DNA from: an uncultured Methanoregulaceae archaeon
GTDB lineage: Archaea; Halobacteriota; Methanomicrobia; Methanomicrobiales; Methanospirillaceae
DNA length: 64,000 nt
Reading direction: 5' to 3'
Assembly (NCBI GenBank): GCA_963705255.1
Contig: OY970061.1
Span: forward strand, 64,001-128,000
Part shown: one piece after another, positions 2,886-51,562 of the stretch
Numbering within the stretch: the first letter of the stretch is position 1
Layout: each line of letters starts with the position of its first letter
The notes under the pieces: model-generated
Told to the model about the DNA's origin: nothing
Database searches by the model: none
What the model saw: the letters and a program-made list of their open reading frames with translations, nothing else
Position numbers and translations under genes: made by a program

Positions 2886-3117
2886 GCTCTGGAGAAATGG
2901 ATGTGAACCAATCGGGTTCACGCTGAAACCATGAATTCGCTAAAATAGTCACATTGGGAGGGCCCCCCGCCTCAGGGCCTCTCCGAGGCACGGCGGGGCA
3001 AGGATATTTTTAGTCACTGATCCGCCGCGGGGGCGCCCCGCCGGGGGCGGCGGCGTTTATCATACTTGTGATGAAGAGGTAGCAACCTTATCAAATCTGA
3101 ATAATATGATTTTCATA
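2886..3117 (+). repeat. Hairpin-chain element, copy A (minimal form with empty loops)
   Basis: Shares GCTCTGGAGAAA, TGAAC..GTTCAC, CCCCGCCTCAGGGCCTCTCCGA, GGCACGGCGGGGCAAGGA, CCGCCGCGGGGGCG, GCGGCGGCGTT and ATCTGAATAATA.GATTTTCATA with 5950-6453 and, reversed, most of these blocks with 47906-48412. Confidence 0.85.
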
Positions 3118-3257
3118 AAAAAAGTCAAAAACAACGTCCGGATGCTCTCGTCCGGCGATGACCCCGAACCTATCCTTTAAGTAATTCCAAACAATATATA
3201 ATTCATACCTATGATCAGGCATTACATCCATCGCATGATACATGGGGGTGCGTTTAC

Positions 3258-4487
3258 TTGTATTCACCGGATACTACCAAGTACCTTATTCACATCAGCC
3301 TCGCCGCAGAGGGGGTGGTCGAGAAACCCGACGTAGTCGGTGCCATATTCGGGCAGACTGAAGGGTTACTCGGCGAAGACCTCGACCTGCGGGATCTCCA
3401 GCGGACAGGGCGTGTGGGCAGAATCGACGTCCAGATTACGAGCAAGAAGGGCGAGACGAAGGGGGAGATCCTGATCTCCACCTCGCTCGACCGGGCAGAG
3501 ACGGCTATCCTTGCCGCATCGCTCGAGACGATCGACCGTGTCGGTCCCTGCGTAGCCCACGTGACCGTGGACTCGGTTGAGGACATAAGGGTTTCCAAGC
3601 GGAAGAAGATCGTCGAGCGGGCCAAGGAGATCCTGATCGACCGGTTTGATGACGGGACCATAGACAGCGACGAGCTGCTTGACGATGTCCGGCAGACCCT
3701 CCGGATAGAGAAGATCGGGTCCATCGGCGAAGAGCGGGCACCGGCCGGCCCGAACGTCCTCGAGTCAGACGCCATCATCATTGTCGAGGGAAGGGCGGAT
3801 GTCCTGAACCTGCTGAGGTATGGCATCAAGAACGCTGTTGCCGTGGAAGGGACCAACATCCCCAAGAGCGTCGTGGAGCTCTGCGAAAAGAAGACCACGA
3901 CCGCGTTCTTTGACGGGGACCGGGGTGGCGAGCTGATCCTCCGGGAACTCCTGCAGGTGGCTGATATCGATTTTGTCGCGTTTTCCCCGAAGGGCAAGAG
4001 TGTCGAGGACATGACCCGGAAGGAGGTCATCAAGACGCTCCGGAACAAGGTCCCCGTCGAATATGTCCGCGACCAGTACTTCGAGACCTCGGCCGAACTC
4101 CCGGGCGATCTCCGGACAACGCGTCCGTCCCTTGAAGATGAGGACGCCCACGAGCGGAAACGGCAGCCTGCAGGGGCCCGTCGCCCGCGTGACACATCGG
4201 GCGGCCCGCTGAGCCTCAGGGAACACATCGAAGACGTGAAAGGGCAGAACCTGGCACGTTTTCTCTCCGATGACCTGTCCGTGGTCAAAGAGTTGCGGTC
4301 AGACGAGGTGGAAAAAGCCATCGAGACGATCGATACTACGGCGACCGGGCTCGTCGTCGACCGTCCCGTGGACCAGAAATTCCTCGACCGCCTGGTCTGG
4401 AAAGGCCTCTCCTATGTTGCGGCAAAGGATTTCAAGGGGATCATCAAGCGCCCCACGGCAATCCGCCTGCTGAAGATGGGGTCGTGA
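3258..4487 (+). CDS. dnaG: Archaeal DnaG-type primase / exosome-associated DnaG
   Basis: [22 protein letters not shown]-terminus; TOPRIM motifs IIVEGRADV and [11 protein letters not shown] start. Confidence 0.95.
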
Positions 4488-4547
4488 CGGCCCCACACAA
4501 ATTTATTTATGCTGCACCCGTCCATGTTACTGTCTGGATGTGGACGC

Positions 4548-4829
4548 ATGCACAAAGAGGAACTGATCAACCTTCACCAGATGCTCTCTGAGGTCAAGGA
4601 CTATTTTGAGGAGATCAACCCGGACCTGAAGTTCTCCCAGTACAGTGCACTGAAGATCTCCCCCTCCCAGCAGCACAAGAGCAAGATGGAGCACAAGTAT
4701 GCCATCTTCGTCCTCGGGACTGAGATTGCCAACGCGATGAAGGACGTGGACTATACGTCCTCGAGCAGGATATCGGCACGGATGAAGGAACTTGCCGACA
4801 AGACGCTCAAGGAAATGGATACGGAATAA
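4548..4829 (+). CDS. UPF0058 family protein
   Basis: MHKEELINLHQML...ISPSQQHKSKMEHKYAIFVLG signature. Confidence 0.85.
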   Translation: MHKEELINLHQMLSEVKDYFEEINPDLKFSQYSALKISPSQQHKSKMEHKYAIFVLGTEIANAMKDVDYTSSSRISARMKELADKTLKEMDTE

Positions 4830-5004
4830 TCTCTTTTTGTCCCTGGCCGGAACACCGTACTTCCGAAAACAGATTTAATACTCCCGAATGGTAGGCCCAA
4901 TGTCACTTTGCGTACCATCAGGCACGAGGATGCACGGGTTGTGGTTTGGATCAATCAAACGGCTGACTTAACGGGACCGATGTAAAAAATCTCCTGAACG
5001 AACT

Positions 5005-5605
5005 CTATTTTTTTCCGAAACCATAATGTTCCCGTAAAAATTTCCTGACCTTTTCAGACTCCAGATATCTCTCATCAAGCGTGTCAATAATTTTCTCGAT
5101 TATGTTCACCTGATCTGAGATGAGAGCACTTGTATTATCATCAAGCGTTGCAGTATCCAGCAAAATAGCCTGCAAGGGATTTCTGATCTTGTCATTGAGG
5201 ATCAACAACTGTTCCATATTGTGCTCAATCTGCTGGAACGCCTCCCTCTTCAATAGTTCGAGCTGCGTTTTACTGGCCCTGGAACTTTCAGCAAAATGCG
5301 AGATCACAATACCAAGAGAGACAAAGATGAAAAACCATGCAGTGTGAACTGCGATTATCCTCACAGAAAATGTTCCGAACACGTACACGAGTACGATGTA
5401 AACCCAGCCAAGGGCGATCGTGATCAGGATCCCCCTGCGGGGAAAAGCATATGCAGTCAGGAGCACCGGAACAAGGAAAAAATAGGGAAATATGTCATTG
5501 ATGCCATGGGACAGGTCTGAATACAGCAGTCAGTATTACTCCAAGTGAAGTTGCGATGATGAGATATATCCAGATGGTATTTTCATGGATGAAATTATGG
5601 GGCAT
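5005..5605 (-). CDS. Membrane sensor-like protein with C-terminal HisKA-like helix, no HATPase; apparent indels near 5515-5535
   Basis: About 4 TM helices then QIEHNMEQLLILNDKIRNPL...ESEKVRKFLR; the upstream frame from ATG 5605 (MPHNFIHENTIWIYLII) joins after two single-base insertions. Confidence 0.6.
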
Positions 5606-50316: not shown

Positions 50317-50393
50317 TGGTAGTACCGCTGCCGGCGTGAAGGGGCTCATTCTTTCGGTAAATGGAGGTCGGATCCTGAGGGCAGTGCTGACTG

Positions 50394-50549
50394 TCAGGGA
50401 TTTTCCGGTTCGGTATCTTCGGGAGAAGTATCAGCCTCAAGGACAAACGACCCCCGGTACCCGCATTTCTTGCAGAGGTATACCTGTCCGATGTACCCGC
50501 CGGCCACCGGAAAGATCTGGTCGCTTTTACAGGAAGGGCAGTAGAGCAT
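50394..50549 (-). CDS. Small zinc-ribbon protein
   Basis: MLYCPSCKS...YLCKKCGYRG; divergent from pyrH. Confidence 0.7.
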   Translation of the reverse strand: MLYCPSCKSDQIFPVAGGYIGQVYLCKKCGYRGSFVLEADTSPEDTEPENP

Positions 50550-50592
50550 GGTCAACAACTCTATATGAGCACCCGGTACAAAAACTAGTGCA

Positions 50593-51297
50593 ATGAAGAA
50601 GGTTGTCATCTCGCTGGGCGGCTCCATCCTGATCCCGTCCCTCGAAAACCATACGATCAGGGAATACGTTCCCGTCCTGAGGAAGATCGCAAAGCACTGC
50701 CGCCTCTACGTTGTCGTCGGGGGAGGTGGCGAGGCCCGCAGGTACATCAGCATCACCCGCGAACTCGGGATCGACGAGGGCACATCCGATGAGGTCGGCA
50801 TCCTCGTTACCCGGCTGAACGCGACCATGCTGATCGCGGCCCTTGGCGAAGACGCGTACCCGAAAGTGGCGGAGAGCCACGCGGAGGCAAAGAAGTTCGG
50901 GGAGTCGGGAAAGATCGTGGTGATGGGGGGTATCACTCCCGGCCAGACGACCGATGCGGTGGCAGCGGTCCTCGCCGAACGGGTCGGTGCCGCGGTCTTC
51001 ATCAACGCGACCTCGGTGGACGGGATCTACACCGCCGACCCGAGGGAGGACCCGGACGCGACCCGGTTTGACGCGATGACACCGAAAAAACTGCTGGAGA
51101 TCGTGGGCGGCACCGCGCTTGGCGCCGGCTCGAACAACGTGCTGGATGTCGTCGCCGCACGGGTGGTGGAGAGGAGCCGCATCCCGCTCGTGGTCCTTGA
51201 CGGGCGCGAACCCAGGAACCTCTCGAATGCGGTCCTCAAGGGCAGATACCGGGGTACCGTAGTCTCGGACGGGGAGAAGAACCCGCTGCCTCTGTGA
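50593..51297 (+). CDS. pyrH: Uridylate kinase
   Basis: VVISLGGS, VVVGGGGEARRYI, GGITPGQTTDAVAA, TSVDGIYTADP. Confidence 0.95.
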   Translation: MKKVVISLGGSILIPSLENHTIREYVPVLRKIAKHCRLYVVVGGGGEARRYISITRELGIDEGTSDEVGILVTRLNATMLIAALGEDAYPKVAESHAEAKKFGESGKIVVMGGITPGQTTDAVAAVLAERVGAAVFINATSVDGIYTADPREDPDATRFDAMTPKKLLEIVGGTALGAGSNNVLDVVAARVVERSRIPLVVLDGREPRNLSNAVLKGRYRGTVVSDGEKNPLPL

Positions 51298-51420
51298 GAA
51301 ATAATCCTTCGGTTCTTCAAATCAGAAAAAATGAATGTTTTTTCCGCAGGAAAGATATTACCCGCACGAGTGATTTTTTGGAAAAAAGATGAAGGGCAGT
51401 GAATCAATATCTATCTCAAT

Positions 51421-51562
51421 AACTTCCCTGCCCCGCCGTGCTCGAAGTTCCTGCGAACTTCTCACACTTCGCGGTTCTGACGAACCACTCATAAGTCGAA
51501 GTTGCACTTCTCCACAGCCCTGCGGGCTGTCCTCGGAGAGGCTCTGAGGCGGGGAGCCCTCG
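51421..51562 (-). repeat. Hairpin-chain element, copy F (stem/loop 1 only)
   Basis: 51441-51541 is identical to 48237-48337; both scaffold arms present; lacks the 58-bp module at 48179-48236. Confidence 0.92.

Follow-up and report, generated by a model that had tools for sequence, protein, structure and literature searches.

The window analyzed here is a 64,000-nucleotide (nt) stretch of DNA from an uncultured Methanoregulaceae archaeon (GenBank GCA_963705255.1, contig OY970061.1, positions 64,001 to 128,000 of the forward strand), and it is part of a single-contig genome of 2.60 Mb and 54.6% GC (G000). Between its genes lie scattered hairpin-rich elements, six of which (copies A to F) had been singled out from the sequence as a dispersed noncoding family whose scaffold is fixed and whose hairpin cargo varies. 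This original prediction holds for copies A, B, D, E, and F and extends to 167 loci across G000. The closest relative of G000 is G041, whose argG gene is 94% identical. We consider it very probable that these elements are members and remnants of a superfamily of MITEs (miniature inverted-repeat transposable elements) of the genus Methanoregula, moved by an IS5-family transposase.

Copies A, B, and E have a common order of parts: a TGAAC/GTTCA hairpin (H0), a first stem CCCCGCC...GGCGGGG (S1), a second stem CCGCCGC...GCGGCGG (S2), and a tail, GAATAATAYGATTTTC. The tail is the inverted partner of an H0 segment, CCATGAAAATCG, and the pair closes a long-range stem. Copy A (2885-3117, plus strand) is a scaffold-type element that opens with a 5' terminal inverted repeat (TIR), GGCTCTGGAGAAAT (2885-2898), and continues with H0 (2888-2941), S1 (2958-3000), S2 (3018-3064), and the tail (about 3097-3117), without a 3' TIR; both of its loops, predicted to be nearly empty, are empty. 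Copy B (5950-6456, plus strand) is also of the scaffold type, with both loops filled. It comprises a TIR-like start, GCTCTGGAGAAAC (5950-5962), H0 (5952-6016), the S1 left arm (6014-6042), loop-1 cargo (6043-6175), the S1 right arm (6176-6191), the S2 left arm (6196-6212), loop-2 cargo that includes a two-hairpin unit, U (6319-6381), the S2 right arm (6382-6400), and the tail (6433-6454); on its 3' side there is nothing beyond a decayed inverted H0. Copy E (48412-47900, minus strand) has a decayed 5' TIR, H0 (48412-48355), an S1 whose left arm (48357-48326) leads into cargo of another type, an S2 whose loop-2 cargo is homologous to that of copy B, and the tail (47968-47900). A Toprim/DnaG-like gene (3258-4487) begins 141 nt downstream of copy A, an ornithine-cyclodeaminase-family gene (6510-7745) begins 51 nt downstream of copy B, and a radical-SAM gene lies downstream of copy E. 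These genes are mutually unrelated; therefore, the copies are not duplicated leaders.

The fixed order predicted for all full copies is thus complete in A, B, and E, is reduced to S1 with the left arm of S2 in D and to S1 in F, and is absent from C. Copy D (24767-25234, plus strand), which occupies the convergent gap separating argG from a TPR gene, consists of the S1 left arm (24767-24797), B-type loop-1 cargo, the S1 right arm (24930-24946), the S2 left arm (24951-24964), and further hairpins, with no H0, S2 right arm, or tail. Copy F (51562-51421, minus strand) is a solo S1 hairpin with cargo like that of copy E; a tRNA-Pro(TGG) gene (51649-51723) lies 86 nt from it in divergent orientation. 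As predicted, loop-1 cargo is of one type in B and D (89% identity over 281 nt) and of another in E and F (98% over 116 nt). Copy C (11031-11457, minus strand), immediately downstream of a minus-strand glycosyltransferase gene (11481-12623), is a related element with a different body: it has no S1/S2 scaffold and belongs to the Y..X type of the same MITE superfamily, with a decayed TIR at its X end (11031-11089), hairpin units at 11097-11188 and further on, and no TIR at the Y end. What had been read as a fragment near position 9123 is a look-alike of the first hairpin of B-type cargo (9118-9150, plus strand; roughly 40 nt), a weak resemblance recognized by eye only; it may sit inside an open reading frame (ORF) and is absent from the regions with at least four BLAST partners described below. 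The window also holds a complete 134-bp mini-MITE absent from the original list (33710-33844, minus strand; X end 33711-33768, Y end 33790-33842), with both TIRs and TTTTTTC on either flank, which is shared with G041, and, at 60143-60203 (minus strand), what is left of the X end of one more element, its TIR decayed.

Complete members of the family end in a 14-bp TIR, GGCTCTG(G/T)AGAAAT. In G000, the motif GCTCTGGAGAAAT/C has 119 matches with up to two mismatches, compared with 53-65 in shuffled sequence, and the TIR motif opens three kinds of ends, H0, Y, and X; 70 element ends were typed. Inverted TIR copies bound twelve elements, which are 133-730 bp long. Between the two 8-mers that flank an element, a mean of 6.6 of 8 positions match, compared with 3.5 in 132 cross-pairings. 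Agreement reaches at least 6 of 8 in 10 of the 12 elements, compared with 7.6% of controls, and is perfect in three. The target-site duplication (TSD) is therefore 8 bp, in a best register that adds one base per side and so yields the TIR given above. A complete scaffold-type element reads TIR-H0-S1-S2-(tail) and is closed either by a Y end in inverted orientation or by H0 plus TIR, likewise inverted, as at 391984-392211 and 622311-623040 of G000. Hence, the earlier statement that there are no TIRs or TSDs is right for the listed copies, which have no 3' end, and wrong for the family.

Filled and empty sites tell the same story of insertion. At one locus (L051), G041 contains a 638-nt composite insertion that starts with GCTCTGGAGAAAC and has GGTTTTG on either flank, and G000 has the empty site with a single GGTTTTG; this is the one clean filled/empty pair obtained from the comparison that the original prediction had proposed. 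At another (L053), 529 nt in G041 face 5 nt in G000, and the 3' end of the insertion is an exact inverted copy of its 5' end; there the flanks have diverged and hold only a degenerate short duplication.

A search with Pfam DDE_Tnp_1 (PF01609) over five genomes led to an insertion sequence (IS) with the same ends. Genome G021 has three copies of a 1007-bp element with one ORF of 300 amino acids (aa), TIRs of the form GGCT(C/T)TGTAGAA(A/T)T, and perfect 8-bp TSDs. Its transposase scores 217.5 bits on the NCBIfam model NF033579, IS5 family transposase (cutoff 140), and 85.3 bits on PF01609 (cutoff 23). Matches to it (E<=1e-10) occur in 74 of 108 genus genomes, some of which hold about 20 copies. 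At 14 of 20 loci, drawn from 20 genomes, a pair of TIRs 1006-1013 bp apart encloses the transposase gene, and the 12 loci with readable flanks include six with an 8/8 TSD and one with 7/8. A second IS subfamily, with ~50% protein identity and a length of 996-1007 bp, has the TIR TGCTCTGTAGAAA and the TSDs GAAAAATT and AAAATTTT. One of its ends reads on ..AAATCAT and the other ..AAAACCT, and in this they resemble the Y and X ends of the MITEs. The partner TIR is presumably similar to those of IS903 or IS6100. Provisionally, the partner would fit the ISH1 subgroup of IS5 in size, single ORF, and 8-bp TSD: it shares with that subgroup a length of 996-1013 bp, one 300-aa DDE_Tnp_1 ORF, the 8-bp TSD, and TIRs that likewise begin GGC/TGC. 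In the available part of PMC6352166, ISH1-subgroup elements are 900-1150 bp long with one ORF and 8-bp direct repeats, and ISTth7 is tabulated.

Other transposase families were considered as the partner and rejected. ISL3 is absent from G000 and present in 14 of 108 genus genomes, and its 10 inspected loci gave no credible TIR match (the best, 13/14, was on one side only, with no pair). IS1595 was found in one of five genomes, with no TIR pair and a single 11/14 match, and IS256 in two of five, as fragments only. IS6-like genes with a SWIM-DDE architecture occur in 3 of 24 genus genomes and twice in G000, with no TIR. An exact 24-nt X-end pattern run over the genome contigs hit only six stretches and no autonomous copy. 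The two IS6-like genes of G000 (2147365-2148546, L079; 2152908-2154092, L082) each encode 394 aa, with a DDE domain of the IS240 type and, at the N terminus, a SWIM-like zinc finger. Their proteins are 84% identical, their nucleotide identity (78%) covers the ORF only, and both are also found in G041. They have no recognizable IS ends and may be old or domesticated transposases.

The family therefore has every MITE feature that we tested: it is short, noncoding, and multicopy, has TIRs and a TSD of fixed length, shows presence/absence polymorphism, and shares its ends with an autonomous IS in the lineage. The statement that these elements are not a CRISPR was correct, whereas the statement that they are not a classical MITE does not survive the TIRs, the TSDs, the filled/empty pair, and the IS5-family partner. 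In the mechanism that we favor, noncoding elements of about 130-730 bp with a 14-bp TIR, which insert with an 8-bp duplication, mostly at AT-rich intergenic targets, would be moved in trans by the DDE transposase of the ~1007-bp IS5-family IS that has the same TIR. The partner IS persists in many sister genomes and is reduced to fragments in G000. Two body types share this one TIR. Copy C and the mini-MITE (33710-33844) represent the Y..X type; A, B, and E belong to the scaffold type and have no 3' end, and D and F are solo S1 remnants with or without part of S2. The GAAG...CTTC cargo of their loops would grow, shrink, and swap through slippage, unequal recombination, and gene conversion; these changes would reflect recombination between many copies rather than a separate enzyme.

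The distribution of the family is consistent with this mechanism. A fuzzy scan with six scaffold blocks located 58 loci in G000, always in the order S1L-S1R-S2L-S2R-tail. Iterated nhmmer searches with seven modules gave 37 Y ends, 39 X ends, 26 H0, 49 S1, 26 empty S2, 148 U units, and 13 tails, which cluster into the 167 loci. A TIR-type end is present at 75 of these and S1/S2 at 56, with both at 23 of the 56. By self-BLAST of crude intergenic segments, 219 regions totaling 43,943 bases have at least four partners, and the repeat family makes up ~1.7% of the genome. Just 2.7% of module bases fall inside crude gene calls, compared with 72% of the genome, and 24 of 39 X ends lie in convergent gaps, compared with 16% of all gaps. 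Both the avoidance of coding sequence and the enrichment in convergent gaps are as expected for tolerated insertions. Copy A as a query matches 24 of 24 other genus genomes; among 16 genomes that represent five other families of the order, it matches none. A D-like element is found at argG in none of 28 other-species loci. Across 12 species with argG identities of just 74-94%, S1 and S2 are almost invariant, while flanks and linkers vary; the two stems are also found apart, with variable linkers.

Several observations weigh against the MITE interpretation. None of the six listed copies has both TIRs (at most the 5' repeat), which leaves their TSDs unreadable, and of four complete scaffold-type elements that were read, two have a recognizable TSD and two do not. 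There is no detectable TIR-type end at 33 of the 56 S1/S2 loci, and U units stand alone at 58 of the 167 loci; both groups could be decayed MITEs or the product of another spreading route. The near-invariance of S1 and S2 is not explained by plain MITE decay. An intact partner transposase is missing from G000, which has fragments only, and none was seen in G041; thus, current mobility in G000 is putative. Finally, the gene map came from a crude home-made caller.

The interiors of the elements turn over rapidly. In G041, copies A, B, D, E, and F occupy the same sites between flanks that are 95-98% identical, and in all five orthologous copies the interiors differ by whole hairpin units. Loop 1 of copy D is B-type in G000 and E/F-type in G041, and copy E shows the reverse; copy E of G041 has also lost the stretch that runs from the right arm of S1 to the left arm of S2, and the block at 25104-25234 of copy D is absent from G041. 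The S2 loop of copy A is empty in G000 and filled in both G041 and the metagenome strain X5. Copy B lacks ~219 nt in G041 (6166-6384 by match ends) and has an empty S2 loop in strain X5, and copy F has ~37 nt (two hairpins) more in G000 than in G041. The D and E loop-1 cargoes are reciprocally exchanged between the two genomes (L014; L043-L045 joined), with the 23 kb between them collinear; as D and E are mutually inverted, two successive crossovers (inversion and re-inversion) or two conversions would suffice.

The cargo itself is built from hairpins with a common base. Of 400 perfect intergenic hairpins with stems of at least 8, 167 have the base GAAG...CTTC, and the next 4-mer accounts for 17. 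These 167 hairpins have 44 different inner stems, and 66 have the oriented flanks GGA...GAC. In alignments of U, 196 cells are double compensatory, 72 are G.T, 35 are A.C, and 60 are other. The G000 variant of U occurs in 5 of 24 other genus genomes, compared with 24 of 24 for S1/S2. Many GAAG units begin with GGCTGTGGAGAAGT, which is identical to the TIR at 12 of 14 positions (window positions 6300, 48314, and 51518, and throughout G000); the units might have arisen from TIR palindromes or might serve as internal pseudo-ends. Tandem arrays of three to four two-hairpin units directly follow stop codons at 1486938-1487238, 307166-307376, and 1212412-1212558 of G000, with differing stems, the same bases, and loops of the ATCA/GTCA type; no TIR was detected nearby. 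At 552470-553093, an open frame of 208 codons is flanked by an S1 piece on one side and an S2/tail/Y-end piece on the other, and its cysteine/histidine motifs resemble, by eye only, those of a small nuclease. The genes between split copies included no candidate enzyme.

Given this modular interior, we asked how far explanations other than, or in addition to, plain MITE behavior might apply. One is that the MITE shell carries a functional module, S1-S2 closed by a ATGAAAATCG/CGATTTTCAT stem, with the loops as expansion segments. We regard this as unlikely, and hold the same reserved view of its general form, in which the module would be a conserved RNA, or a protein-binding DNA or RNA fold, with a host or element function. 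The near-invariance of S1/S2 in species with such divergent argG genes speaks for it, as do compensatory changes by which several copies turn GCCTC/GAGGC of the S1 apical hairpin into GCCCC/GGGGC, TATA-like AT-rich boxes before H0 in several copies, and a T run within the tail, the last two noted by eye. Copy B folds well (z = -8.6 as RNA and -9.3 as DNA, with 0 of 100 shuffles as good), and in five of five copies the fold of the sense strand is slightly better than that of the antisense. However, copy A on its own is unremarkable and no better than shuffles (z = -1.4 sense, -2.2 antisense), and many copies are truncated. A first wobble count favored the sense strand (138 G.T versus 85 A.C, and 33 versus 7 with A as reference), but a second, independent count, from hidden Markov model alignments, reversed the sign for the scaffold (H0 20 versus 30, S1 8 versus 17, S2 7 versus 16), with a total of 188 versus 148 and with an S1 alignment that covers only the 5' 37 columns and leaves the main stem outside. 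Because the two counts disagree for the scaffold, the strand signal is not robust. Nor is there an orientation bias in tandem gaps, where 35 modules are co-oriented and 29 opposed (S1, Y, X, and H0 summed). The cumulative GC skew of G000 falls nearly monotonically (maximum at 0.08 Mb, minimum at 2.23 Mb), with no clear two-replichore pattern, so leading and lagging strands cannot be assigned. The proposed Rfam check returned nothing but two tRNAs in the 64 kb at the gathering threshold and no match for 2800-6600 even at E<=1. A structured noncoding RNA with expansion segments, one of the two readings first offered, is at most a possible extra property of the element.

A wider version of this idea, which we find distinctly improbable, makes the IS5-type shell only a vehicle and treats the S1-S2 fold and the GAAG hairpins as a second layer with its own biology. 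The D/E cargo swap and the cargo differences in all five orthologous copies fit it and are not explained by plain MITE decay. Such a layer could be a conserved RNA, or a protein-binding module, maintained by selection, or a set of hairpin cassettes exchanged at conserved bases; the transposase might also act on internal GGCTGTGGAGAAGT pseudo-ends. The other mobile reading on offer, a REP/BIME- or REPIN-like element whose single-stranded hairpins are spread by an HUH Y1 (RAYT) transposase or another hairpin-specific enzyme, is highly unlikely. It would account for the interior mosaic of short hairpins, which also occur singly and in the post-stop tandem arrays, for the dominance of the GAAG...CTTC base, for S1 and S2 occurring apart with variable linkers, and for the gain and loss of whole hairpins between close relatives. 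However, REP/RAYT systems lack the TIRs, 8-bp TSDs, and IS5-family partner that this family has; no hairpin-flanked candidate enzyme gene was seen; and a search of G000 for Pfam Y1_Tnp (PF01797) gave no match, while six control genomes were positive. The original prediction is supported in holding that the elements are mobile and moved in trans, and not supported on the HUH/RAYT enzyme. An assembly artefact, or duplicated leaders of paralogous genes, is next to impossible. Short-read metagenome contigs do break at repeats, but the same elements occupy the same sites in G041, an independent assembly, with closely matching flanks, and contigs from other runs bridge parts of the elements; for the paralogous leaders, the unrelated proteins encoded downstream are decisive.

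With the MITE interpretation preferred, it is useful to set the family beside known systems. BOX elements have a modular build, boxA-boxB(n)-boxC. Those of Streptococcus pneumoniae, named in the available part of PMC10969869, work alike in having fixed end modules, variable internal repeats, strong folds, and nesting, a likeness of design; unlike BOX modules, those of Methanoregula lie within loops that belong to two conserved hairpins, and they vary in kind as well as in number. The prokaryotic MITEs covered by the same part of that source, such as Correia/NEMIS of Neisseria and SM of Sulfolobus, are likewise small, noncoding, multicopy, and intergenic, with TIRs, TSDs, and strong internal folds, and are mobilized in trans by an IS that shares their ends (PMC10969869). 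Unlike these MITEs, the Methanoregula elements match their partner IS in the terminal 14-20 bp only, and their unrelated interior consists of two invariant GC-rich hairpins and hairpin chains that change between near-identical sites. With REP, BIME, and REPIN sequences they share the character of extragenic palindromic mosaics, an enrichment at gene 3' ends, and fast gain and loss; unlike REP/BIME/REPIN-RAYT systems, they have TIRs, 8-bp TSDs, and a DDE IS partner, with no Y1 transposase in G000. Archaeal MITEs are listed for Sulfolobus, Halobacterium, Haloquadratum, and Desulfurococcus, and not for Methanoregula, in the available part of PMC10969869, and no description of a Methanoregula MITE was found in the main-text parts, supplements excluded, of the literature searched (PMC13343696, PMC10969869, PMC6352166, and PMC8944449); the IS tables that belong to PMC13343696 may be relevant to the partner IS. 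As IS-derived MITEs, the elements lose most of the novelty first claimed for them.

The family is thus an ordinary kind of mobile DNA, yet its interior is unusually modular and fast-changing. The combination of an invariant S1-S2 core with cargo swapping is what remains unusual. An exotic-looking family of hairpin chains is replaced by an ordinary mechanism that can be tested, that of MITEs of an IS5-family IS. For the annotation of Methanoregula genomes and metagenome-assembled genomes, this identification accounts for the ~1.7% of the genome noted above and for breaks in short-read contigs. It also accounts for intergenic differences beside housekeeping genes between near-identical strains. 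The two-hairpin core with its swapping cargo is a compact natural system for the diversification of repeats by recombination, and it bears on whether archaeal MITEs supply RNA-level signals at the ends of genes.

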